From: Blasia pusilla
Taxonomy: Eukaryota
Assembly (NCBI GenBank): GCA_050084515.1
Contig: CM114271.1
Location: 21,948,001 to 22,012,000 of the forward strand
Direction: 5' to 3'
DNA: 64,000 nucleotides
The position numbers were made by a program, and so were the translations under genes. This document shows positions 5,215 through 63,781 of this stretch, piece by piece. Numbering within the stretch: position 1 is the stretch's first letter; each line of letters begins with the position of its first letter. The notes beneath the pieces were generated by a model. It made no database searches. It worked only from the letters and a program-made list of their open reading frames with translations, and was not told where the DNA came from.

Positions 5215-7698
5215 ATATGATGCAGTCTCCACTTCTTACTCACAAAACTACAACAACAATTTTTCTCATAGTCGTCATCTTTACAATATGGTTAAATGTC
5301 TTCTCATAATCAATGTCATATTGTTGTGCATAGCCCTTAGCTACCAGTATGGCTTTGCGTCTATTCACTATACCATCTTGATTGCACTTGACTTTGTAAA
5401 CCCATGTGCAACTAATCGCTTCCTTCCCGAAAGGTGTATCAATGAGGTCCCAAGTCTGTTGATGTCTTAACATACGAAGCTCTTCCTCCATAGCTTCAAT
5501 CTATTCAATCTTACATATAACTTCTTCAAAGTAACTCGATTTCTATTCTTGAAGGAAATTCATCATATATACATAATTTTTTGCCAGGATTTTTTCATTC
5601 ATGAATCTATGAACATAATGTATGCCTTTACTTGATCTACGAAGTTTTTATTGAGAGATGGATGTCTCTAACATCTAACTTGAGCTCTAACTATTGTCAA
5701 TATATTGGATACGTAGTCTTCTCGACCATGGATTGACACATTTAACTAATATGTCTAGGACCTCTCCTAGCCCTTGTACTTGGAAAATTTGTAGGCAATT
5801 CCTCTTGGTTTAAAATCATATTCTCCCCCTTGATAGACAAGGTCGGAGGTGGAATAGCCTTAGATAGAGTATATCATGACTTCAGCTTATAAAAAATAAT
5901 ATTACAACTAATAATAAGCTATCTAGAGGATATAATATAGCACTTACACGGTTATATCCCTTAGTTTCATCACCGTAGCCAATGAAGATATATCTCTCAT
6001 ATTTGAGATCTAATTTCTAATGTCTTTCAGAAGGAACATGAGTATGAAAAATATAGCCAAAAACTCTTACTTCCTATGAAGACTTTGAATGGAATCTTGT
6101 CTTGAACTCATGTAGTTAGATTTTAGTTGATTAAGAAGACTGCACTTGCTATAGTCTCTATTCTATACACCTTACACATGTTCTTCTCATTCACTCCCGT
6201 TGTCGCTTGCGGCACTAACACAATGCCGCCTCAACAATATGTCCATTCTTTGGCTTAGCCAATCCACTTGTTGTGGAATATAACATCAAGCGACTCATTG
6301 TTGGATGTCATTTTCACGTAAGTAGCCATCAAACTTTGTTGAAAGGAACTCTCCTCCTCCATCACAATGCAATTTGAGAATGTATTGCCTAGCTTGCTTC
6401 TCTACTAAAAATTTGACTCTATGAAATACTGAGAATACTTCTAACTTGGCTTTCTGAAAGTAAACCCATATATAGATAGAGAAATTATCAATAAATGAAA
6501 CAAAGTATTGGAAACCACTAAGTCTATATTGTGATGTTTTCCACATATCATTGAGAATAAACTCCAATATCTTGGATGCTCTTCTTTCTTATTTTGGAAA
6601 TAGAAATCTAGCTTGTTTTCCAAATTGGAAAAAAGAGCATATCTTTTACGTAGTAGGACTTGATAATTTAGAAAGTCCTATTATTGGATTAGATGATTAA
6701 AGACTCTATGGCCAATTTTCTTATGCCACACATTGAGATCTATAACTTATTGGTCAATTTGATCATACATTGTTGTATGAATTTTTCATTAAAAACAACT
6801 AATTTAAATATTCTGCCATATCTTGTTCCTTTGGCAATCATAGTCTAGTCATCCATTGTTTCAGTAAACCAATCATTTATATTATACTTCACTTGATAAT
6901 CCTATTCTACTCATTGTCTTGAAAAGATCAAATTTCTTGCAATGGTAGGGATATAGAAAATATTTCCAAGAGCACAAATATCATCTAATCTTATTGGAAC
7001 TTTATTGGTATACGTAATATGATTTTGACTATCATCTCTTATAAGCATTATTGCAGGATGCTTCACATGCTCCATACTATTAAACCATTTAGCTTATGAG
7101 GTCATGTGATTTGATGCACCAAAGTCGATATGTCAATTTATTATTGAGTCTCTTTTTACCATTGATCCCATATAATGAGTCATGACCAGAAGATGCTTAA
7201 TTTGTGACAAATGTTGCTCTTGATATTGCATTTAGTGTTGTTGCTCAACATATTTTTTTGTTATTATAAGGCTTCCATTTTCATATATGCCTTCTTCTTT
7301 AAGCAAAACTTTATAGAGTAACCCTTCATCCCACAATAATTAGAAGATGCAATGACACCCCGTTGCTAACATCGACCCCAACTGTCTCTACTCTGACCAT
7401 CTTATGATTGTGTCTATCATTGGTTCACATTTGACTAATGAAGTTATGTTGAGTGTCTCTTCCTCTATACGCTTGATATCCACCACGATCTCTATCTCTA
7501 TTTGATCAATTACCTGCAAATACCCCACTCTCTTATAAACTAGGTGAGCTACTACTGCCGATTAAGCGTATCTCCTCACTAATGAATAGTAAGATTAACC
7601 CTTGAAAGATTGGATATTTTTCTCTTATATAGATACAATCTCAAAAGACTTGTAATCTTTTGGAAGGCCTTGAAGAGTGAACAAAATTATATCATCAT

Positions 7699-8183
7699 TT
7701 TCATATTTGAATAGCCGATAGGCCGAGATCTATCGTGGATAGGGCGTAGGAGCCAGCGGACTATCTTGAGTGTAATTTTCTCCCATGGTGTCGGATGAGG
7801 TTGAGGATAGGTCCATTGTGTCAGGAACGTCGTTTCTGACAACTTTCATGTTGAGGTCTTTTACAACAGGATGACTTGTTGACCAGGTCACCCGCCCCTG
7901 GTAACCTGTGCGCGGAGGTTACCAAGGGTAGGGCTATTTTTAGGGGAAGAGCCTTTTGGCTCTTCCCAACCCTATATAAGAGAGGAAGATGGCTTTCCTA
8001 AGCCATCTTTCTCATGTTGGGCCATTGGAGCACCTCCCTTGTATGTGTGTGAGATAGGACTAGGGTGCTAGCGTCCGGATTCATTGATAGCACAGGGTGG
8101 ACAAGGCTCGATATGCCGATGTAGATTGAGGAGTGGAGTTTTAGGCCGGGTTTGCCGTTTTTACTACTCTTTATTTTTACATG
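7699..8183 (+). repeat. 5' LTR (3'-truncated) of the methyltransferase-carrying gypsy element
   Basis: Aligns with 18054-~18560 (e.g. gtccattg..tcaggaac.tcgtttctga, ttttggctcttcccaa, catctttctcatgttggg, actagggtgctag). TATA-like CTATATAAG at ~7972. Confidence 0.75.
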
Positions 8184-8628
8184 AGAAAGATGTCAAGGGG
8201 CTGGTGGGAATTCGTTGTTTGTAGGTAGGCGAGCGAGTTGCCTTGGTCAGGAGCCCGTGGAGACGTTGGTTGACGTCGTATTTGTCATTTTTTTTGTTCG
8301 GAAGGCCGTGGGCGGAAGGGCTATTCGTTTTTCTCAGATTTTGTTGGTGCACCGGGATTGGGGACAACGGCAAAGTGTAGTACGGAGTGGGCATCGGGTG
8401 TACGCAAGTGAGGGTGTCGAGAGAGAGAAGAAAAGAGAGTTAGGGCTTGCAGCCGCCGGGGGCGCTGACAGGCGTGTAGGTCGGCGGGCGCGGACAGACG
8501 GCGGTGGACGTGCGGCGACAAGAGCTGAAAGCGGCGGACGGGCGGCGATAGGAGCTGACGGGAGGCGGACGGGTGGCAATAGGAGTTGACGGGCGGCGAC
8601 GGGAGCTAACGGGCGCGGACACGCGGCG

Positions 8629-8753
8629 ACGGACGAGGTCAGTCCGGCGAACGTGGTAGGACGGACGAGGTCGGTCCGGCCAACGTGGTAGGATGGACGA
8701 GGTCGGTCCGGCCAACGTGGTAGGACGGACGAGGTCGGTCCGGCGAATGTGGT
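8629..8753 (+). repeat. 32-bp GC-rich tandem repeat, about 4 copies, in the gypsy 5' leader
   Basis: Unit ACGGACGAGGTCGGTCCGGCCAACGTGGTAGG with few substitutions. Confidence 0.9.
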
Positions 8754-9632
8754 TGTGCATGGGCAACGTGGTGGCAGGGAGGATGTCGACGTGGTGAGTG
8801 ACCGACATAGTTGGACAGCGGACGTGGATGATGTTGAGCTACGTGATTGAGAGTGCGGATGTGGTCGGGCAAGGCCGGATGTGGTCGGGGTCATGTTTAC
8901 GTGGACAGACAGGGCATACCTGGTAGGAGTGGATCCGACGTGGGTGAGTTTGGTTGCGCAGTGGAGAGTTTTGCGGGCCTTAGTGTCTCGCGAGCTTGGA
9001 TGGGATTCGTGAGAGCACTTTGTCGGTCGTTACGAGTAGGTTGGAGGACGACTCATTAGTTCTTGAGCGACTGGAAATTACGAGGGTTGTGATGGGGATA
9101 CACGAACCTACACTGACGGGAAGTTTGACGTGTTGGTCGAGGAGAGTGTTGTGTTGCGGAGATTGTCATATCACGTGGAGGAGTGCATGTTGACGGTGCA
9201 GCAGGTTGGAGGGCGTGATCAGGTTATCCATTCGAGTCCCTTTTCCCGCACTTGTCGTGTGTGATTGAGAGTGTTGGGTATCGGGTAGTAGCTGGTGCTA
9301 GGTGGGTGCAGTAATGGTGACGAGTGTAGAATCTTTTCATGTGTAGCATGTTAATGGATATACGGCGGTTGCCGAGTAGGGGTCGCGTGTATGACCCGAG
9401 AGAGTGTCGCTAGGTTAGGTGAGTCAGTTGGGAGGCTCATGGTGAGACCGAGTGTTGAGTGTGCATGAGGCCGGGTATGTCATCACGGGATTGATGTTAG
9501 CATAGGTGAGGTAGTGAGGAATGTGGGAGACTCGCGATGGGTGGGAGTGCTTGAGCGGGTGAGACAGAGTTTGTCATCACGGCGTTCTTCCAGGGTTCGG
9601 AAGAACGGGGTAGTGCGAGCACTAGTAGTGGT

Positions 9633-11667
9633 GTGACACGGAGTGGAGTGAGATACCGAGGGGTTACCAGTGAGGAGCTACCTCGACATCCATCCATGGC
9701 AAGATCATTGGACACTGGGTCTGGTGACGAGATCGCAGACAGAGAGAGTAGTACTTGGCAGGAGATGGACGACATGGGCCATCGGGGCATGCATCATTTC
9801 TCGGATGCAGTGGGCACCATCGACTTAGATGATTTTATCCATGAGTTCGACACATGGTGCAACTTCCAAGAGATACGAACCCTAACACAGTTCAACCCTT
9901 TCATGGCATGGAAGGGGTTGTTCCAGCACTTGGACGGTCCTCCGATGGATGACTACATGGAGTTTCGATCACTATATTCAGTAGAGATCGATGCCTGGAG
10001 GATGTATTGGGCTCCAGGGTATGTGTCCACTAGTGGTCGCAAGGCATATGATGGGATTGTGAGAGGAGAGAGACCCACACCATCAGCCCAAGGATTAGAT
10101 GGAGAGGAGGGCAGTGAGACAGGCGATGTGGCAGAGACCTTTGGTGGTAGAGGGCCACCCAGCTTTAGCCCCACAGTGGAGTTCTTCCGACATTTGGGGA
10201 AGAGCTACCAGGGCGTACGCACCGACAAGCTGAAGAGTCTACAGGATTTTCAGCGACGATCGGGTGAGAGTCTGAAAGAGGCATTCACACGCATGAGGAG
10301 GCTGATCATTGCTACGTTTGGAGGATCGAGGCGGATCGGCCCAAAGTATTGGTACGGGGTTCTGGACCGAGAACTACGGAGGAGAGTCCAAGATGTGGTG
10401 CTGATTCACACAGCGAAGCCCACATTGAAGGTGGTCTTTGAGTTGTCTAAGGGTATTGAGCTCAACATGAGTGAGGAGCATGTAGTGACCGTTGGATTTT
10501 CTCAAGAGTCGACGGGTCCACGAGCGACGCTGACCCCACAAGTGCCACAGCGAGCACCAATACCACGAGAGCGGGCCAATGTGCCTAGAGAGCAGGGCGG
10601 GTACCGTGAGCCTATGAGGCAACGACCCGTACCTACATATGTTGCCCAGCAGGGACCGATGTGGTCTTGTTGGACGTGTGGAGGGGCCCATAGGCAGAGA
10701 GACTGTCCAAAGCATGGGAGAGGACCACCAGTGCCTCTGATTGCTCAAGAGCCACAGAGGATGGCCCCACCACACCACCAATGTGACCATTGCCACAGAT
10801 ATGGTCACACTAGGGATAGATGTGTTGACTTTCGCCGAGGGGCACGTCCAGAGGTAGGCCGAGGGCCTGGGGGCGGTCGTCCTAGAGGAGGTCGGGGAGT
10901 TCTTCTTGGAGGTGGTGGTAGAGGACTACCACCAACCAGAGGAGATGGAGCAGGAGCACCAGAGCCGGCACTTCTCTCACGCATCGATCACTTGGAGCAG
11001 AGGATTGCTGCCATGACGATGATGCAGCTTAGGGAAGGCACGAAGCTGCAAGCGGCTAGTGTGACTCCAGCTTCTACCTCTTACCCTGACCCGGGTGAGG
11101 ATCTTGCCAATATGGGATTTATGTGTAGTGCAGCCCAGGTTGAGGCAGCTGCAGTGGTGACTCAGGGTGCTGCGAGAGGCACCAAGCCATCGAGAGGCAC
11201 CGAGCCATCGAGAGGCACCGAGACATCGAGAGGCACCGAGCCATCGAGAGGCACCGAGCCATCGAGAGGTGGAGTTGAGATTGACCCACCAGAGGGGACC
11301 GATGGGCGGGAGGCGAGGGTTCCACAGTCGTTCACATTGTTGGAGGCACTACACACACCATCGATGGTGCCTCAACGACCAGCGTTGCCTACAGCTCAGG
11401 CACCTACATCCACATCACGAGGAGTTGGAGTGACAACTCCTATGCCGGCTCGAGTGGAGTTAGTGTCGACCATAGTGTTGGAGGTGGCCACCAGAGTGAG
11501 TCAGACTCCACTATTTTCCGCCATAGAGTTGGCAACGTTGGGAGTTGGACCAGCTGAGGTGTTTCGGTTGGCCGCCACGTTGTGTGAGCATGGAGAGATG
11601 ACTGCTTCTTGTTCAGAGGTAGTTGAGAAGGTGGTGGACTTGCCCTCAGAGCCGGTGCTCGAGACGT
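9633..11667 (+). CDS. Gypsy Gag-like protein with two CCHC zinc knuckles; ORF cut by the solo-LTR insertion
   Basis: 695-aa ORF: LDDFIHEF..., FQRRSGESLKEAFTRM (gag capsid-like), CWTCGGAHRQRDC and CDHCHRYGHTRDRC knuckles, RGG-rich tract. The last ~17 aa read into the inserted LTR. The true start is probably a later ATG (9696 or later). Confidence 0.8.
11173..11269 (+). repeat. 18-bp in-frame tandem repeat (GTEPSR x5) in gag
   Basis: Unit CCATCGAGAGGCACCGAG repeated. Confidence 0.9.
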
Positions 11668-12925
11668 TGTCGTATAGTAAAATCAACCAGTGTGTAAACT
11701 CCTTCGTCATTAAGTGTTAGATAGAGTTTCATTAGTATTAAGTAAATTGGCTTAGAAAAAGGAGATTCTTATGTTTAAACCTCTTTATGGTGCCTCTTTT
11801 ATGCGGGCCCAACTTTAGGAAAAGGAGGTAATAAATAAAAGATGACTTTATAAAAGTAAAGTAGTTGCTTTAATGAAAAGGAAAAGTAGTCTTGGTTGAT
11901 GGCTAGGTTAGTTGGGGTAATTTGGAAAATATCATGTGGGTAAAAGAGGATATTTTGGAAGAGATAAGAGGAAATCTACTTGTGTCAAAATGTGATTGGC
12001 TAAGCCTTGAGAGGAAGCCATGTGGCACAAGATAAGATAAGCTCTATTTCATACTCTTGTGGATCCCTTGTGAGTATATAAAGAGGAGGAACCTTCAAGG
12101 GTTCATCACCTTCTATTCCACATCTTGAGTCTCTCGTGTCTCTCTTGAGTGTATGGCTTTGGGATTGCTTGCTCTTCCAATGAGAGTGGATCACCCCTCT
12201 TGGGAGAGTAACTTGATCATGGTCTATTCTTCGAGAGGTTTCTAGAGTGTGGTGTGTGTGTGTGGGAGGGATGAGAGGTTTGTCACCGTAGAGGAGTTTA
12301 GTCATACTAAAATAGCGGATGTTTTGGCTTGTTACTTTCCCAATGAGAGTGGATTACCCCTCTTGGGAGAATAACTCCGCCAAAACCCATTCTTGAGGAG
12401 AGTAGAGAATGTCTGTCAAGCATTGATAGGGGTGGAGCACGAGCTGTGCCCGACTTTCCTTTCCTCAATCCTTACCATGTCAAGTTACTCTTTGTAGATA
12501 GGCACTGGTTCACTCGCTACTTAGTTTATCACTTTGGAGAGGCGTTCATGAACCAAGTCATGCAATCTCCAACTCCGGTGATTCTTCCTATCGTCACATA
12601 TGGAAGGACATGGGATTGTACTTTGTATGTCCTTATATAGCGATCCATGGATGTCAATAGGCCTGGTCAAGTAGGGTTTAACACTAGTTGTGCTATCTTC
12701 CTCGTGTACAAACGTAAAATAGTTTATAGGGATTTTATAGTTAGGAATTTTGGGGTCCGATGTTACGAAGAAGTGATCGCCTCGGCACTTCCATTTGTGA
12801 TACCTGTCGTGAGAGAATGGAGAGTGTACATCATAATTTTGTATTGAAAAAGGAGAACTTATTAGAGAGTTCACTTTGCATCGACCGCATCTACCGCAGC
12901 TAGAAGAAAGATTCTCGACACGACA
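11668..12925 (+). mobile_element. Solo LTR (~1.26 kb) inserted in the gypsy element
   Basis: Ends TGTCGT...ACGACA, perfect 4-bp TSD ACGT (11664-11667 and 12926-12929). AT-rich and non-coding, TATA-like GTATATAAAG at ~12074, internal ~36-bp duplication (~12178 and ~12341). Orientation is inferred from the TATA box. Confidence 0.8.
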
Positions 12926-12926
12926 A

Positions 12927-13657
12927 CGTCACGTGGTGAGATTGGTCCTGAGGTATCCTAAGTTGTTGCCGATATCTGCAGTACGGGGATATCAGCATAC
13001 GTTATCCGCCGACATCTCTTTGGTGGGGGCGCAGGATCTGGATAGAGTTGGCACCATTCATTTGGTGATTACTGGATGGCCATGTCAGGGTCATTCATCA
13101 GCTCGCCGAGAATTTGGATTGCAGGATCCGAGGTCAGGGATGTTCTGGGAGATGCTGCAAGTAGTACGACACTTGCAGGAGAGTCAGATATGTTCTCCAA
13201 CGTACATTTTGGAGAACTTTCCATTGTTGGGAGACACTCGTGCACGTGTGATGACGAGTGTACATCAGGTGAGGTCCTGGTTGGGACCTGCTGTGTTGTT
13301 AGATACAGCGAGAGTTGGGTCACGTGCCCATCGTCCACGACTATGGTGGACGAACCTGATACCATCACAGGTATTGAGTCGAGCGTACGGTGGAGTCCAG
13401 AGAGCACCACATCCCACAGTGGATGCTATTTTGGGCTCAGGGCGTCGATCTCAGGTGATCATATGGGATGAAAGACCACCGTTGGCCATGGCTAATAGGG
13501 TGGGGGAGTTGAGGGCAACCTTACCTATGTTGGTGAGCTTCCCAGCATCCCATGCCTTTCGTCAGGGAGGGCCAAGCATGATTTGGGATGAGGTGATCGG
13601 AGCATTGGAGGAGCCTACAGCAGATGAGCGCAAACGCGCCATGCGGTTTGCTACCGG
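12927..13657 (+). pseudogene. C5 cytosine DNA methyltransferase domain (DNMT3/Dcm-like) in retrotransposon pol, truncated at both ends
   Basis: Motif IV LVITGWPCQG (catalytic PC at 13080-13085), DPRSGMF, motif VI YILENF, motif VIII LDTARVGSRAHRPRLWWTNL, motif IX-like EPTADERKRAMRF. Motif I (FxGxG) and motif X are absent. Confidence 0.88.
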
Positions 13658-13750
13658 TATCTTTAGTACTTTAGATCTCCGTGCTTGCTATCATCAGCTT
13701 CCTATCAGGTTGGAGGACAGGGAGAAGATAGCATTCTAGGGGATAGATCG
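13658..13750 (+). pseudogene. Gypsy reverse transcriptase remnant (motif A only)
   Basis: IFSTLDLRACYHQLPIRLEDREKIAF*GID matches the Ty3 RT FSxLDLRSGYHQ...KTAF motif. It is in frame with the methyltransferase. YxDD and RNase H are missing. Confidence 0.85.
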
Positions 13751-13949
13751 ATTCTGGGGGTTGGATGATGAGTCTTTCGATCTGGAGGTTAGTGAGGAGG
13801 TGACAGGTCGTCGTGATATCCATGACGACGTGGAGGTTGTGGAGTTCTTGCGCACTAGCACTAGGATCGGATCCTACAGAGAGCCAAGAGGTTTAGGTGG
13901 GAGGGGACTCACATTTTGCCGGTATGGGGAGATGGTAGGATACGAGTGG

Positions 13950-15229
13950 TAACTCATCCTTCCCAGCAAGCACGTGTAGTGCGACATGCCCATGAGGAGT
14001 TGGGACATTTTGGAGTAAAGCGTACTTACAGCTTACTCCAGGTTCAGTATTGGTGGCGCGGCATGCATACTGGGGTATAGCAGTTTGTGGCCAGATGTAT
14101 GGTATGTGACAGAGTGCGAGCATCCTTCAATGCTCCCACTCCGCATTTACATCCTTTTCCGATTATGGGTTTAGATTATCGGTGGAGTTTAGACTTTGCG
14201 GGACCTTTGCCATTGACGGGGCGTCATCATAGGTACGCATTGGTCATGGTGGAGCATTTCTCCAAGTGGATAGAGTTGGTGGCACTACCAGACAAGGCGA
14301 GCGAGGGAACAGCTTATGCGTTTCTAGATCGTGTGCTTAGTCACTTTGGTGCACCGGCGGAGGTGTTGACTGACTAGGGTACCGAGTTCAAGGGAGAGTT
14401 TCAGGCCTTGTGTGATCAGGCGCTGAGAGATCACCGCACCACGTCTAGAGATCATCCTGAGGCGGATGGGTTGGCGGAGAGAATGGTACAGACGGTGAAT
14501 AGAGGATTGCGCAAGTATGGCTTGCAGCGGGGACAGTTGAGGGAGTGGGACCTACAGTTGCCATGGTTGGCTATGGATTATCGCTTTAGTCGACAGGCAT
14601 CCTTGGCGTCATTTTCACCGTACTTTTTGCTCTTTGTGAGAGAGCCAGATTTACCTGCAGTGATTCGACGTGACATGGCCGAGGTATTAGATCTTGATGA
14701 TCCAGATGTGTGGGTACAAGCATGTTCTCAAAGGGCAGAAGTTTTTCATAGAGTTATGCCTATGGCCTTTTAGAACTTAGCTATTGCCCAGCATAGATAT
14801 ACATTGAGGTACGCTACCATTCGTGGAGGAGATTATTGTCGAGGGGTTAGGAGGTTTCATCATGGAGATTACGTGTATTTACAGCAGGCGGCACCCACGA
14901 CGCTAGATGTTACTGCAGGGCGCACGATCCTACGTGTGCACGAAGTATTACCGACCAAAGTCCTCATGTTGGAGGGACGGGATGGTATGGTTTGGAAGGA
15001 TCATGTGGGCAATTGTGCGCCATATCATCTTCCGAACGTAGATGGGACGGTGGATCCGAGCTTGGCAGTGGTACCTACAGGCTTGAGGTGTATGTTGTGC
15101 GGATCTGCGAGGGGTGCAGCCATCATGTTGGTATGTGATGGTTGTTCTCGAGGGTGGCATATGTCATGTCTGACCCCCCCTCTTGATGTGGTTTCCACGG
15201 GACAATGGATATGTCTGAGATGTGTATAG
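13950..15229 (+). pseudogene. Gypsy integrase (HHCC zinc domain, DDE core) with a C-terminal PHD finger; several in-frame stops
   Basis: HAHEELGHFG...WWRGM...CMVC; WSLDFAGP, EVLTD*GTEF, EADGLAERMVQT; terminal CMLC...LVCDGCSRGWHMSCLTPPL...WICLRC (C4HC3) at ~15089-15223. Confidence 0.9.
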
Positions 15230-15308
15230 GGTAGTAGGTCATGTCAGAGAGCTGTGATATTTTCTATTTGGAGTTGGGGGGATCCAACTACCAGCTAGGG
15301 GGGCGATT

Positions 15309-15443
15309 GTGTGATCTCCATGTATATGTATGAGTTGATTTTTGTATATGTGTGGATCGACCCGTGTGTGGGGAAGATCGATGTTATGTGGTGTAGATGT
15401 GACCAGCGATGTATGTTGTGTAGCGATATGTATGCGCACGACA
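15309..15443 (+). repeat. 3' LTR remnant (internally deleted) of the methyltransferase-carrying gypsy element
   Basis: Follows the PPT, starts TG, ends CACGACA, and aligns with ~18520-18652. Confidence 0.7.
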
Positions 15444-16315
15444 TCATCTTCTAATGTCACTCCAATACTATTCAATTTATAAAAAAATATGTTTAACACT
15501 CAAAACATAATCATTGATATTTTACGATAATTTCCTTATTTCTTTCAATTATTATTTTAATTGAAGCTTTCTCATCTTTGTATATGTCTAGAACAGGTTT
15601 TCCAATGTGTCTGAGGCTTCCTTCAAAATATCAACATCTTGGCCTCATCTATTGGTTTCAAGTCTATTGATTCATCTTCTTGTTTGGCCTCATCACTAAT
15701 AATAAGCTCCCATAGTTCTTGACCCTTAAGAAATTGCTTTACGTAAAACTTCCAAACATTATAATTCTGCTTATCTAGCTTCTCTCATGTTATTGTTGTC
15801 GGGGAATACTCCATGAAGAACGATTTCACTCACTAATCATAATTTGAGGCTCTCCACTTAAAGCATAGACTACTCCTACATCAAAATTGACCTGAAATTT
15901 GCCATAATTGACCATCTATGTGGAAGAACTAGTCAAAATTGGCTTGTGGAGAGCAGATTGCATAACTTTCCTTCACTAATTGCACTTTCCTACACTTAAA
16001 TTGCTATTGCAAAAGCTCAAATTTTCATAATTGAATGATTTGTATGCCTTTGAAAGCTCTCGATGACCTCCACAAGATGGTCAAAACCAACCTTCTACAT
16101 TCTTTTGATTGCAGACCGATGCAGACCCAAATTTTTTTATTGATCAGGAAAGCCCTCAAAATAACCTCCAAAGTTTTGTCACCGTCACAACTCCACCTAA
16201 AATCTTATACCACTAAGCTATGATTGAGATTTCCTTGCCCTTAATTGAAATTTTGCCTTCTCTTGCCTCCATTTTCTCCTAAACACCAAGAATTTCAATT
16301 CATGTTCTCTTGTCA

Positions 16316-16326
16316 CTTTGATACCA
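16316..16326 (-). other. Primer-binding site (initiator Met tRNA type) of the copia element
   Basis: Reverse complement reads TGGTATCAAAG, close to the canonical TGGTATCAGAG, upstream of gag. Confidence 0.7.
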
Positions 16327-16689
16327 TAAAGAAAATTTCTAAATAAGCATAATTGATGGGATATAGCTCTTAGAGACACACACACACCACTATGAAGAAA
16401 GAAATTTTGCAATGAGAGAATTAATTGAGGTTGGTCCTCTTCTCAGTTATATAAGGTATGTACAATGAATCCTAACCCTAATATTTACCATAGTCTCGAA
16501 TTATACTAATTATTGTTAACTAATCCTAGTTAAAATAATTATGCTTAACTAACTACCCAAGATAAGCTTTCTTACTTCGTTGTGAGTACCAAATGTAGCA
16601 GTTCGTGTGTTTGATGAGCTTGACTAGAACTCAGTCCTTAATACTTTTCGGGTCCTCATTTGCGTGGACGACATAGACTTAGCTATTTG

Positions 16690-17650
16690 CGATGAGGTAC
16701 CATCCCTCTTGTCCGTCCTTTTCTATATGAAGCCAAACAAAGAGCTCGAATTGATTTTCCATTAAATCTAGTGATGACGACATAACTACTTTTGTCACAA
16801 ATCCCTTTTTGCTCCTCATGGGTGATTTCCTTGAAGGGTATCTTCCTAAATGTGATCAAAACCATCAATCTTTTATGGTGTGGTGTGATCTTCCACACAT
16901 GATGCATGTATCCCTACTTCTTGATAGTGGCATGTTCCTACGTAGGCCATTAAGTCGACTTTATGGGCCTTCTCTTGGATTTGGCCACTCATGACTCAAC
17001 TCATGTGGGCGTCGCTCCTCAAATTTCTTTCTATAGTCCTCTATGTGGATCTCAACAAGGGTTGTGGGGCTTGTTCATGGTTGTCTTAACTTGCTCAATC
17101 GTCCTAACTTTTCTTCTAGCAGCAAGGAGCACATCTTAGTGTACAAGGGAAATTTGTCCTTCATTGCAAGGACATTGATGAATTTTCTATATGAATCTTT
17201 CATGATGTTCATAAGGATCGCAATCATGTGCTTATCATCAAGGAGCATATTAACCTCCACAAAATTGTCTCCTAGTTGTTGGAGTAGACTTTGGTGTGTC
17301 TAAATGCTGGAGCCTACTTCCATCCAATTGGTGTAAAGCCTTTGTAGTAGAGTGAATAGTCCCCGTCATACTCATGCCTACAAAGCAATTGCAGGAGTAT
17401 CCCATGTCTCCTTAGTTATCTTGGCCTTCTTGACGAATTGGAATTGAGACTCCTTTTTTATCACCCTAGATATATCAAGGGCATGGGAATCTTTCCGATC
17501 AAACTCTTCCATGGCCTTCTTGTCCATGTTGGCGGTTTTCTGCCTTCTTCCATCTACAACATCAAACAAGTCACATGCCATAAAAATCCCTCAATCATGT
17601 ATGTTCCATATGTTGATGTTGGATTCGGCGAGTTTATGGGACTCTATCGT
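16690..17650 (-). mobile_element. Degenerate copia gag fragment
   Basis: LMACDLFDVVDG...EEFDRKDSHAL...KETWD; DDKHMIAILMN...SYRKFI...SLLLEE; decayed zinc-knuckle region at ~16700-16740. Confidence 0.55.
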
Positions 17651-18053: not shown

Positions 18054-18652
18054 TACCACATCTTAGCTAGCCGACATGTAGAGTCCTATCGCGTCGACGG
18101 CAGATAGGATCAACGGGTTGTTTGGGTGTAACTTTGTCTTGAGATGTTGGAGACAAGTCCATTGCATCAGGAACATCGTTTCTGAAAAAATTCAATATTT
18201 TTCTTTTTGCAGCGTAGTGACTCGTTGATCGGGTCAAAATTCATCCGATAACTTGTCCACACAAGTAACCACTTGGAGGATATTTTTGGGGGTCCCAAAT
18301 TCTTTTGGCTCTTCCCAAGGCTATAAGAGAGGGAGAGATGGCTTTCCCAAGACATCTTTCTCATGTTGGGTCTTAGGAGCACCTCTCTTACTTTGTGTGT
18401 AGTAGGAACTAGGGTGCTAGGGTCCAAATTCCTTCATAACGGAGATTGGATGTAACTTGACATACCAATGTTTATTCAAGAGTGGAGTTGGTCGTATGAG
18501 TTTTTTTTTTTTTTTTTTTGTGCAGTCTCGATGTACATGCATGAGTTCATTTTTACATGTATGGATCTACTCGCATATTAGGAAGATCAGTGGTGTGTGG
18601 TGTGGATGTGACCAACGATGTGGGTTATATGGCGATGTGTATGGGCACCAAA
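18054..18652 (+). mobile_element. Solo LTR (~600 bp) related to the methyltransferase-carrying gypsy family
   Basis: 5' part matches 7699-8183 and 3' part matches 15309-15443. Imperfect TSD ATTC/GTTC. Confidence 0.75.
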
Positions 18653-25454: not shown

Positions 25455-29873
<4,419 letters not shown>

Positions 29874-62654: not shown

Positions 62655-63781
62655 CTATCCATTCCAACCATTGCCAGTGGCCTGAACTGAAGATTTCCTC
62701 CTGTCATTACCTTTGGCCTGAAACTTCTTTTTTGCTGATGCTGTTGTACAAAGAATACACCGCATTCGAGGGGTACCAGACTCTTCTTCATCGTCATCTA
62801 CCCTCTGATCATAAATGCTGTCATATCCAAGACTTGCCTGCTCTTTTTTTTTGTTCCCATCGGTTCCGATGCTGGACGTAACATTGAGGCAGGTGACATG
62901 ATAGGCATGACTACAGAAAAATGCAACGACTGCAACATTTTGTAAAGCTACGGGATCCAGGCATATACAACATAGCCCACTTCCACTGATTGTTGAAGAG
63001 ATTCTTCCAGGTTTCGTGCCCCGATTTACACTACTTCCCACTCTCTGCATTACTGGAGGTGGCTGTCTGGTATTTTGGTTCTCCTCAGCTTTCACTGCAT
63101 TCTCAGTGCCTCCCACTCGGATTGCGTGTCGAGCTTCATCATAGTATCTCACAAGTAGGTCCACACAATCAGCCTGCAACATGAGGTCACAGAACCATCA
63201 ATCACCTTGAGAGACCCAAACTCAAACAAAAGCTGGGTATGGTTGTCCATATTTATTGTAGAGAAGGTCAAGGAATACCAAACTCTATGGGCCTGCCATG
63301 CCTGCATGATTTCTATTGTAAGTGTAGAAGATTCCCATGCACAGGCAAATGAGAGAAAGTCAATTCCACCATAATGATTTCAATCTCTACTGGCAGCTGA
63401 AGTTAGGAGGTGGATAAGAAGAAAAATGATGAAGCAGCAATGTGATGTGGCCAGAATCCACATTACTACCTTCAATATTTCATTGCATCCAATCCGAAGA
63501 GAAGTCTCGGTTCGATAGTCAGTAATGATCTTCACCAGGCGGTCCCTCAAACTGCAGTGGCCATTTCTGAAACAAATAAGTAACACCTTCTATTGCCAGT
63601 GGGTCTATAGCAATTCAAATCATTGATCAAAGTACCATCAGAATAGATCTATCTGACCCTCAACAAAAAAATATCCCATCTTCCAAGCATCATACCGTGG
63701 AATAGGCAGCCCCCCAGGAACTTTGTGGAGAAGATGTAATGGGTCAATATTCCCCACAGTATGCTCAAGCAGCGCACCAAC
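62655..63781 (-). CDS. VPS41: Vacuolar protein sorting 41 (HOPS subunit), last three exons; the gene continues beyond the window
   Basis: VGALLEHTVGNIDPL...PR (63781-~63696); LRDRLVKIITDYRTETSLRIGCNEILK (~63551-63470); ADCVDLLVRYYDEARHA...RING-H2 CCIC...FFCSHAYHVTC...RCILC (63173-62655). Confidence 0.9.

Follow-up and report, generated by a model that had tools for sequence, protein, structure and literature searches.

The element at positions 7699-15443 of the window, the 64,000-nucleotide stretch of Blasia pusilla DNA that was analysed, is very probably a dead copy, with internal deletions, of a Ty3/gypsy-type retrotransposon whose family occurs in green plants. The native order of this family is, with high confidence, Gag, protease, DNMT3-like methyltransferase, a leaky stop, reverse transcriptase (RT), RNase H, DDE integrase and PHD finger. 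Its boundaries are most likely split direct repeats of the arrangement A1...B1-A2-B2, with TG..CA ends and 4-bp target duplications and no LTR pair. This kind of element was already described in 2018 in a green alga, and the window copy is a land-plant addition to a kind that is common in liverworts and mosses.

The coding part of the window copy, together with its leader and a foreign insertion, comprises the following segments.

8243..9085, + strand: GC- and CpG-rich leader segment private to the copy (DNA word depth, CpG o/e)
8596-8753, + strand: 32-nt tandem repeat in the leader segment (repeat family D1)
9765..11720, + strand: uninterrupted Gag reading frame; tblastn against residues 1-569 of Marchantia P0051, 43% identity, E 7e-116
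10668-10706 and 10782-10823, + strand: two Gag CCHC knuckles (motif coordinates)
11155-11269, + strand: 18-nt tandem repeat in the Gag frame (repeat family D2)
11668..12840, + strand: nested fragment of another, highly transcribed repeat, occupying the expected place of the protease and the methyltransferase N-terminus
12927..13661, + strand: DNMT3-like C5 methyltransferase fragment (Pfam PF00145); motifs IV, VI, VIII and IX kept, motifs I and X missing
13659..13748, + strand: small piece of RT, joined in frame with the methyltransferase through a deletion; 73% identity to P0057 residues 571-600 (tblastn), with P0073 residues 605-644 matched as well
13779..13918, + strand: remnant of the RNase H-integrase linker (matched by P0050 residues 1134-1189 in tblastn); RT and RNase H are almost entirely lost
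13865..15229, + strand: integrase with H2C2 zinc domain, DDE core and C-terminal PHD (Pfam); 47% identity to P0073 residues 1032-1489, E 6e-112
15089-15223, + strand: C4HC3 PHD finger (pattern and Pfam PF00628)

Pfam analysis of P0073, P0094, P0105 and P0114 revealed a Ty3/gypsy-type polyprotein with protease, RT, RNase H and DDE integrase, of which the window copy retains just Gag, a scrap of RT and the integrase, as judged by Pfam and tblastn. The copy has lost its protease, both motif I and motif X of the methyltransferase, and the greater part of RT and RNase H. The integrase is broken by in-frame TAG codons at 14078, 14375 and 14771; at 14078 and 14375, almost every RNA read and DNA contig has a different letter, so that these two stops are private to the window copy. 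The nested fragment at 11668-12840 displayed no similarity to the family polyproteins in tblastn even at E 5, and its GC content is 0.34-0.46. At 11668, 114-218 RNA reads per run enter with unrelated upstream letters, and reads entering at 12340 bear a motif resembling a tRNA primer-binding site. The leader segment gave a DNA word depth of 54, 0.7 and 2.1 in three bins, compared to >16000 in the adjoining sequence, with a CpG o/e of 1.1-1.6. The domain losses, the nested repeat and the three integrase stops bear out the view, taken from the sequence-only reading, that this copy is dead; it is a wreck without function. An Rfam search of the window returned no matches. Elsewhere in the window, a CDC5-like exon lies at 27150-28697, with 72% identity to a Rosa chinensis cluster representative, which points to a streptophyte and probably a land plant.

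The methyltransferase motifs reside in an ORF at 12837-13739, in which GWPCQG (13074-13091), ENF (13212-13220) and RAHRPRLWWTNL (13323-13358) are followed in the same frame by the RT motif FSTLDLRACYHQ (13662-13697). The Pfam search of 12837-15229 matched PF00145 at E 9.7e-7 with 28.9 bits against a cut-off of 22, the outcome anticipated when this HMMER check was proposed, and the fragment shares 59-65% identity with proteins of Marchantia, Calypogeia and Sphagnum. Intact relatives have approximately 200 extra residues at the junction of methyltransferase and RT, including methyltransferase motif X, and the in-frame junction in the window copy is therefore a deletion scar. Thus, of the original observation that methyltransferase motifs are in frame with RT, the motifs and the frame are real but the junction is not native. 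An Atlas search gave the description 'DNA methylase, Streptophyta'.

The methyltransferase domain of the family is DNMT3-like in sequence and in predicted fold, as had been suspected from its motif VIII region. A sequence search with P0001 gave DNMT3A at E 6e-12, ranked above DNMT3B, DNMT3C, DRM, M.HaeIII and M.HhaI, and P0001 is collinear with DNMT3A, its motif order being not permuted, unlike that of DRM. The predicted fold of P0001 (pLDDT 75, pTM 0.80) was submitted to Foldseek, where every match listed to rank 50 is a DNMT3A, 3B or 3C, with a best E of 8.8e-17 and target TM of 0.79-0.81. In the family alignment A1, PCQG does not vary and ENV and RxR hardly do; intact members also possess motifs I and X. 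Set beside host DNMT3A/3B and plant DRM, the domain shares the catalytic fold and the motif order of DNMT3. A host DNMT3 has PWWP and/or ADD readers N-terminal to the catalytic domain and belongs to a cellular multi-exon gene, whereas the family domain is flanked by protease and RT inside a polyprotein; Pfam found no PWWP or ADD adjoining the catalytic domain in P0051, P0073, P0094 and P0114. The protease and RT flanks and the zero PWWP or ADD matches set the domain apart from a host DNMT3 orthologue.

Three protein searches yielded 47, 29 and 64 homologous proteins, and homologues of the methyltransferase-bearing gypsy polyprotein were found in Marchantia polymorpha, M. paleacea, Calypogeia fissa, three Sphagnum species, Klebsormidium nitens, Mesostigma and Haematococcus, plus many other assemblies. 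Marchantia polymorpha alone accounts for 19 of the named database proteins and, together with Calypogeia and Sphagnum, contradicts the earlier statement that this architecture is not a standard one in land plants. The K. nitens protein KFL_014710010 was matched by the profile at E 2.9e-60 and has a protease followed by the methyltransferase; BLASTP of the K. nitens protein with a relative aligned the methyltransferase part only (37% over 184 aa, E 7e-33), and a Symbiodinium protein is a remote match (E 1.3e-6). The methyltransferase domains of the K. nitens and window-family elements are thus homologous, and the elements may share common descent as a whole. Two domain orders occur in the family, the methyltransferase preceding RT in one and standing between RNase H and the integrase in the other. 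In a tree composed of element sequences, the window methyltransferase groups with those of Marchantia, Calypogeia and Sphagnum in a clade of 31 rows (SH-aLRT 100).

Purifying selection acts on the methyltransferase in an intact lineage, as judged from substitution patterns. Comparison of L061 with L063 gave dN 0.036 and dS 0.253, a ratio of 0.14, the value by which the proposed dN/dS check came out positive; ratios among L059, L061 and L063 were 0.10-0.14, deep pairs gave approximately 0.20, and the window methyltransferase compared with 35 loci gave 0.11-0.27 with dS saturated. Close pairs of dead copies gave 0.56-0.81, indicating that most family copies are decaying, and stop codons were present in 32 of the 37 full-length methyltransferase segments of metagenome loci. 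It could be argued that the methyltransferase is a one-off fragment of a host gene, captured by or nested in a single gypsy copy and functionless for the element, and the foreign nested sequence at 11668-12840 and the deletion scar between methyltransferase and RT are features of the window copy that such an explanation would accommodate. However, proteins from six or more named genera, and from many other assemblies, have the domain at one and the same position, following the protease and preceding RT, and the domain is under purifying selection in the intact lineage, rendering the one-off capture scarcely credible. The searched-for relatives with motifs I and X, protease, RT and RNase H were also found. 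An HMM match, relatives bearing the domain and selection upon it were all obtained, so that none of the three outcomes named beforehand as fatal to the idea was observed.

A second claim of the sequence-only reading, that of an LTR element bounded by a target-site duplication, stood in part. The duplication, TCAT, and a 5' end at about 7699 are plausible, but self-comparison of 6000-17500 revealed no LTR pair and gave just three families of short internal repeats, of which two are tandem, and in relatives the repeat is split. The terminal features are as follows.

7699..8188, + strand: terminal repeat unit A1, element 5' end; 73% identity (331/452 aligned positions) to 18059-18519
15297..15303, + strand: polypurine-tract-like run AGGGGGG, kept as ...AGCTAGGGGGG in five related loci, directly before unit B
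15307..15443, + strand: repeat unit B1, 3' end of the window copy (nhmmer); 77% identity to 18516-18648
7695..7698 (left) and 15444..15447 (right), + strand: candidate 4-bp target-site duplication TCAT, identical 4 nt at both sides
18059..18648, + strand: distinct solo A-B unit belonging to a related subfamily (A and B with a T run in between), matching first 7702-8178 and then 15307-15439 in the main copy

Position 15443 is the exact 3' end, matching the conserved terminus ...GCACGACA that the B repeat has in four related loci, and an nhmmer profile built from the 3' blocks of relatives matched 15266-15445 (E 7.5e-15), ending where B1 ends. Perfect 4-bp duplications were observed in the relatives L065 (AAGG) and L076 (CATA), and 43 DNA contigs diverge from the window at 7702 and go on with sequence resembling the 3' flank. 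An nhmmer profile built from the A unit and leader of relatives had no significant match in the window, the 5' parts being unconserved between species, and the contigs of the intact-looking L059 and L061, which may be cut, carry no terminal repeats.

In L006, L034, L055, L065 and L076, the A1/A2 pairs are 88-94% identical. A B2 unit follows A2 in 4/4 loci with enough 3' flank, and scores for a B unit upstream of A1 lie within shuffled controls in 5/5 loci. The window copy keeps A1 and B1, the A2-B2 of relatives being missing. Recombination between B1 and B2 would leave A1 and B1 alone, as in the window copy, while recombination between A1 and A2 would leave a solo A-B unit, as at 18059-18648. 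Among Blasia RNA reads, 139-223 per run pass 15443 into a TGTCAC... motif like the A start of relatives, and the A-to-B joint, from 8178 to 15307, is covered by 22 RNA reads and many DNA contigs. An ordinary LTR retrotransposon that has lost its 3' LTR and part of its 5' LTR would be compatible with the many deletions in the window copy, the TG..CA-like ends and the possible 4-bp duplication; it is nevertheless very unlikely, given the A1...B1-A2-B2 arrangement of related full-length loci, in which B succeeds A2 and is not found before A1, and the Blasia RNA reads running from B to an A-like start and from A to B. The nearest described family, KnitGypsy-Dnmt3, is likewise said to possess DIRS-like, not LTR-like, repeats (Fig. 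4c legend, PMC5890265). The interpretation of the 3' 135 bp as a truncated LTR was dropped, since in relatives that stretch precedes A2, and the canonical LTR class was rejected given the absence of two long flanking direct repeats in 6000-17500. The DIRS or tyrosine-recombinase class is excluded by the rve and Integrase_H2C2 domains, the 4-bp target duplications and the TG..CA ends. Split repeats therefore remain the preferred description of the family boundaries.

Expression was assessed in three RNA runs chosen by species label, plus DNA contigs. Sense transcripts of the family were detected in the Blasia RNA reads, the strand assuming the usual stranded-library convention. A TAG followed by CAG TTA, CAA TCA or CAA CCC was observed at the same place in 6/6 loci inspected (TAA in one), and we consider it highly probable from this sequence context that the stop between methyltransferase and RT is leaky. 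In several lineages, the methyltransferase domain lies within the Gag-protease translation unit and not in the Pol part.

Downstream, Pfam and pattern searches agree with the initial description of a methyltransferase located upstream of an integrase that ends in a C4HC3 PHD finger. Integrase_H2C2 (6.3e-11) and rve (1.6e-8) were matched in the window, and the suggested comparison of the finger with PF00628 returned E 3.5e-10 and 40.2 bits, above the curated cut-off of 24. PF00628 is also present in 18 of the 21 relatives with an rve match, and the C4HC3 finger was recognised by pattern in 20 proteins and 13 loci; as the relatives carry the methyltransferase as well, the proposal that family members possess both domains holds. 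The closest solved relatives of the finger are DPF3 PHD2 (2.5e-12), CHD4, PHF12, KDM5A/B PHD1, PHF21A, AIRE and UHRF1. The fingers of DPF3 PHD2, CHD4 PHD2, KDM5A/B PHD1, PHF21A, AIRE and UHRF1 are ones which we take to be readers of H3K4me0 or H3R2, and for this reason the family finger is proposed as a putative H3K4me0 reader. PHD fingers as a class include readers of H3K4me3, and a tryptophan precedes the zinc-binding histidine in the family finger, two points in favour of a finger that reads this active mark and steers integration to promoters instead. That alternative appears quite unlikely, as the best solved matches are those presumed H3K4me0 or H3R2 readers and fingers of the ING, BPTF and TAF3 type are absent among the 60 solved matches listed.

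It is tentatively proposed, with somewhat less than even confidence, that the two modules act jointly. In intact elements, the methyltransferase would be produced along with Gag and protease from the upstream, abundant translation unit and would methylate the element's own new DNA, while the PHD finger, of the type reading unmethylated H3K4, would tether the integrase to silent chromatin, like the chromodomain of chromoviruses. We infer in this way that the family may pre-methylate its cDNA and target chromatin. Alternatively, the DNMT3-like domain may be kept for another task, such as acting on RNA, non-catalytic DNA binding, or acting in trans on host chromatin; a variant of the last would see host silencing blunted or mimicked. 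The domain of KnitGypsy-Dnmt3 gave zero DNA methylation in yeast, and RNA methylation was raised for another retrotransposon methyltransferase in the discussion of the same paper (PMC5890265); the placement of the domain in the Gag-protease unit rather than in Pol in several lineages would also suit such a task. However, the yeast result was not regarded as decisive by its authors, human DNMT3B having failed there too (PMC5890265), the catalytic motifs described above are conserved, and the predicted fold is closest to the DNA-acting DNMT3A/B. Another task is accordingly regarded as unlikely, though it carries real weight, and methylation of the element's own DNA is the reading followed here.

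DNMT-carrying retrotransposons have previously been described in a charophyte alga and in dinoflagellates. KnitGypsy-Dnmt3 of Klebsormidium nitens (de Mendoza et al. 2018, PMC5890265) combines a gypsy-type Pol with an un-rearranged DNMT3-like domain, as does the window family, and its reported Ka/Ks of <0.2 compares with 0.14 in the intact lineage here. The window clade consists of bryophytes, whereas the text of PMC5890265 deals with K. nitens only, and its main text contains 0 occurrences of a PHD finger. We infer that P0114, from K. nitens, is probably one of the published KnitGypsy-Dnmt3 elements. Chromoviruses (Gao et al. 2008, cited in PMC6673714) similarly bear a histone-reading module on the C-terminus of a DDE integrase, which by analogy suggests chromatin-guided integration. 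Unlike the window family, with its PHD finger, split repeats and methyltransferase, chromoviruses have a chromodomain and true LTRs and are not known to carry a methyltransferase; Pfam found no chromodomain at the integrase C-terminus of the window copy and of the relatives analysed, where a PHD finger stands instead. A PHD accessory domain in green-lineage retroelements is shared with REM1 of Chlamydomonas (Perez-Alegre 2005) and CR1 elements (Kapitonov & Jurka 2003), both taken from citations in PMC6673714 and PMC8557442; the citing passages report no DNMT for either, whereas the window family has one. SymbioDIRS-Dnmt3 of dinoflagellates and EpiLTRs are, like the present family, retrotransposons with a cytosine methyltransferase, but differ in a tyrosine recombinase DIRS backbone or in a DNMT clade sister to DNMT4, and EpiLTRs pair their writers with a chromodomain as chromatin reader, where the window family has a PHD finger (as described in bioRxiv 10.64898/2026.05.21.726589).

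Our literature search retrieved no paper on DNMT-carrying retrotransposons in bryophytes or other land plants, and supplementary figures of PMC5890265 and PMC12344493 may show some. For transposon specialists, points of interest are the combination of a DNMT and a PHD-tagged integrase, the existence of two domain orders, the leaky-stop layout, and split repeats in an element that uses a DDE integrase. Marchantia polymorpha, a model species for which mutants and maps of the methylome and chromatin are available, contains the family in abundance, so that whether a transposon-encoded DNMT writes methylation, and for whom, becomes testable in a tractable land plant. A bolder and doubtful reading is that of one ancient gypsy-like lineage, extending from chlorophytes to bryophytes and still transcribed in land plants, with a working DNMT3 writer in its Gag-protease unit, an H3K4me0-reading PHD finger on its integrase and palindromic-junction split repeats instead of LTRs. 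If it were true, part of the de novo methylation of bryophyte transposons would be written by the transposons themselves.

Reading-frame and Pfam analysis, together with the Gag match, demonstrated that the element at 7699-15443 is real and that the domains named in the sequence-only reading, a C5 DNA methyltransferase (DNMT), an RT motif, an integrase and a PHD finger, had been correctly observed. The GC content is 0.45-0.55 within the element versus 0.33-0.38 in its AT-rich flanks, and the features are as follows.

9765-11720: uninterrupted Gag frame with two CCHC knuckles, 5' of the DNMT (43% identity to residues 1-569 of the Marchantia protein P0051, E 7e-116)
12837-13739: 300-residue DNMT frame (C-5 DNA methylase PF00145, Pfam E 9.7e-7, 28.9 bits, cut-off 22)
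13074-13091: GWPCQG, in the DNMT frame
13212-13220: ENF, in the DNMT frame
13323-13358: RAHRPRLWWTNL, in the DNMT frame
13662-13697: RT motif FSTLDLRACYHQ, into which the DNMT frame continues directly
3' of the DNMT-RT frame: Integrase_H2C2 (Pfam E 6.3e-11)
3' of the DNMT-RT frame: rve core (Pfam E 1.6e-8)
14078, 14375 and 14771: TAG stops in the integrase
15089-15223: PHD finger, C4HC3 pattern (Pfam E 3.5e-10)

An 18-nt tandem repeat within Gag (11155-11269) encodes GTEPSR units.

The copy is dead, as had been stated. Similarity to P0051 breaks off after residue 569 (11633) and is picked up again within the DNMT, near residue 898-930; the intervening 1.2 kb shows no similarity to the family, indicating that the protease and DNMT motif I have been lost. 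This stretch (11668-12840) is an AT-rich fragment of another repeat, transcribed much more strongly than the DNMT element (read depth 60-220). Per run, 114-218 RNA reads enter at 11668 from unrelated sequence 5' of it, and reads that join at 12340 have a motif resembling a tRNA-Met-type primer-binding site; the fragment therefore probably belongs to another LTR element. The in-frame fusion of DNMT and RT motif stands for the window copy, although the junction was made by a deletion that joined the DNMT residues ...AMRFATG to RT and removed the RT N-terminus along with motif X; all that survives of RT and RNase H is 30 RT residues and the linker from RNase H to integrase. At 14078 and 14375 almost every RNA read and DNA contig has another letter, and both stops are therefore private to this copy. 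Within the leader, 8243-9085 (GC up to 0.69, CpG o/e 1.1-1.6, with a 32-nt tandem repeat at 8596-8753) is a private insert or expansion, nearly missing from a DNA run in which the remainder of the element is deeply covered. The leaders of two related metagenome loci share an open frame of 133-134 residues 5' of Gag (L006 6822-7220 and L065 2489-2890).

Three protein searches gave 47, 29 and 64 homologues, the named sources being Marchantia polymorpha (19 proteins), M. paleacea, Calypogeia fissa, three Sphagnum species, Klebsormidium nitens (KFL_014710010, profile E 2.9e-60), Mesostigma viride and Haematococcus lacustris; Symbiodinium gave only a remote match (protein search, E 1.3e-6). Homologues across several genera thus carry the domain, and the DNMT-bearing element is a family rather than an accident of one-off capture. 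Many homologous proteins of 1600-2250 residues have RT, RNase H, DNMT, integrase and PHD finger within one frame. PF00628 is present in 18 of the 21 homologous proteins having a precomputed rve match, and a pattern search detected the PHD finger (conserved core CD.C..G[WYF]H..C..PP) in 20 proteins and 13 related loci. Two domain orders were found, with the PHD finger 3' of the integrase in both. Eight proteins, Marchantia and Sphagnum ones among them, have the DNMT before RT, between protease and RT (seen in P0073, P0050 and P0118), an order shared by the window copy; in another 21 (P0093-P0113), among them that of Haematococcus (P0105), it lies between RNase H and integrase. In the K. nitens protein the protease immediately precedes the DNMT, without RT.

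The resemblance to DNMT3 proposed earlier was borne out with P0001, an intact relative. Its best match by sequence among solved structures is DNMT3A (E 6e-12), followed by DNMT3B, 3C, plant DRM and bacterial M.HaeIII and M.HhaI; the DNMT3A match is collinear, indicating that the motifs are not rearranged, unlike those of DRM. A predicted structure of P0001 (pLDDT 75, pTM 0.80, from 18 aligned sequences) was used as the Foldseek query, and all matches listed within the top 50 ranks were DNMT3A, 3B or 3C (best E 8.8e-17, target TM 0.79-0.81). No PWWP or ADD domain was detected by Pfam next to the catalytic domain in P0051, P0073, P0094 or P0114. A quick maximum-likelihood tree, built from 83 DNMT domains without host DNMT3 and DRM and with the Symbiodinium match as root, placed the window copy in a 31-row clade (SH-aLRT 100) with every Marchantia, Calypogeia and Sphagnum row, and the K. 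nitens protein in a separate 7-row clade.

The DNMT was recovered in one aligned piece from 37 of 80 related metagenome loci, 32 of which have stop codons in it, so most copies are dead. Pairwise Nei-Gojobori dN/dS was 0.56-0.81 for close pairs (dS 0.05-0.4), in line with decay following insertion, 0.20 for deep pairs and 0.10-0.14 within a stop-free lineage (L059, L061 and L063), of which L061 and L063 are an unsaturated pair (dN 0.036, dS 0.253). The window fragment gave 0.11-0.27 against 35 loci, with dS saturated.

The element had also been read as bounded by LTRs, wrongly. Self-comparison found no long direct repeat across it, and the relatives show a different layout, A1-B1-A2-B2. Five related loci have two copies of unit A (320-345 bp), one at the 5' end and the other close to the 3' end, with 88-94% identity. 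The 112-bp unit B lies 5' of the second A, beginning immediately after a conserved AGCTAGGGGGG tract, and recurs 3' of the second A in all four loci having enough flank; no B precedes the first A in any of five loci, where scores fall within shuffled controls. Such "split direct repeats" are known from PAT and Ngaro elements (PMC4157794), and the K. nitens element KnitGypsy-Dnmt3 is alike in layout, having DIRS-like repeats with gypsy-like domains according to the Fig. 4c legend of de Mendoza et al. (PMC5890265). The elements start with TGTC and end with GACA, and perfect 4-bp target duplications were found in L065 and L076, as expected from a DDE integrase. The internal B1-A2 junction, GACA-GC-TGTC, is a 10-nt palindrome joining the two termini (L006, L034, L065 and L076) and resembles a circle junction.

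The last base of the window element, 15443, is exactly that of B, and A2 and B2 are absent; an nhmmer profile built from the 3' blocks of the relatives matches to 15445 and no further. TCAT occurs at both ends (7695-7698 and 15444-15447). The sequence at 18059-18648 matches the first 480 bp of the element (73%), then a T run, then its last 135 bp (77%). The layout of the five loci explains this second short unit: it belongs to a related subfamily and is a solo A-B, the split-repeat counterpart to a solo LTR. RNA reads and DNA contigs of the source organism agree with this layout: past 15443, 139-223 RNA reads per run enter a TGTCAC... motif resembling the relatives' A start, and 22 RNA reads and many DNA contigs span an A-to-B joint (8178 to 15307). 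At 7702, 43 DNA contigs diverge and continue into 3'-flank-like sequence, and look like paralogous empty sites. We infer that the main copy lost A2-B by B1 x B2 recombination and that the 18059 unit arose from A1 x A2.

Three RNA-seq runs of the source organism were mapped to 7400-15800 at a likeness of at least 85%, giving 1883-2475 reads. Only 187-350 were 99% alike to the window copy, indicating that most stem from other copies. First mates lay about 10:1 on the minus strand, so that family transcripts are sense if the usual stranded library convention applies; depth over the DNMT part was low (2-50). Two host genes were observed elsewhere in the window, the first of which points to a streptophyte host, probably a land plant:

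27150-28697, minus strand: CDC5/Cef1-like exon (Myb_Cef E 9e-51; best named relative Rosa chinensis, 72%)
62658-63197, minus strand: Vps41-type RING finger (E 1.3e-11)

In all six related loci compared, Gag-protease-DNMT and RT-RNase H-integrase-PHD share a frame split by a single stop (L061 5083-5085, L059 4661-4663, L006 11336, L055 11338, L065 6940 and L076 11339). The stop is TAG, TAA in one of the six, followed by CAG TTA, CAA TCA or CAA CCC; this resembles the tobamovirus-type leaky context, UAG CAR YYA. Judged from sequence, this looks like a leaky stop placing the DNMT within the abundant upstream product; on read-through, the methyltransferase would be about as abundant as Gag, and the RT-integrase part would be rare.

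The window element is a land-plant member, here as a dead copy, of a kind already known from KnitGypsy-Dnmt3, published in 2018 (PMC5890265). PHD fingers in retroelements have likewise been described (PMC6673714, PMC8557442), and a 2026 preprint treats elements combining methyltransferases with chromodomains (bioRxiv 10.64898/2026.05.21.726589). No bryophyte report of such elements was found in the literature searched, supplements aside; the clade in bryophytes, the PHD-tagged integrase as a constant partner, the existence of two domain orders and the leaky-stop layout all appear to be new.

The nearest solved relatives of the PHD finger are DPF3 PHD2, CHD4, PHF12, KDM5A/B PHD1, PHF21A, AIRE and UHRF1, which read unmodified H3K4 or H3R2. 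The enzyme of intact members may methylate newly made DNA of the element itself, the role de Mendoza et al. propose for other retrotransposon DNMTs (PMC5890265). Against this, their yeast assay of the K. nitens domain showed no methylation, a result from which the authors draw no conclusion because human DNMT3B also failed there (PMC5890265). The PHD finger may tether the integrase to chromatin without H3K4 methylation, a role parallel to that of the chromodomain in chromoviruses. The two together, a DNMT that would methylate the new DNA and a PHD finger that would direct the integrase, form what we tentatively regard as the most likely model for this family.
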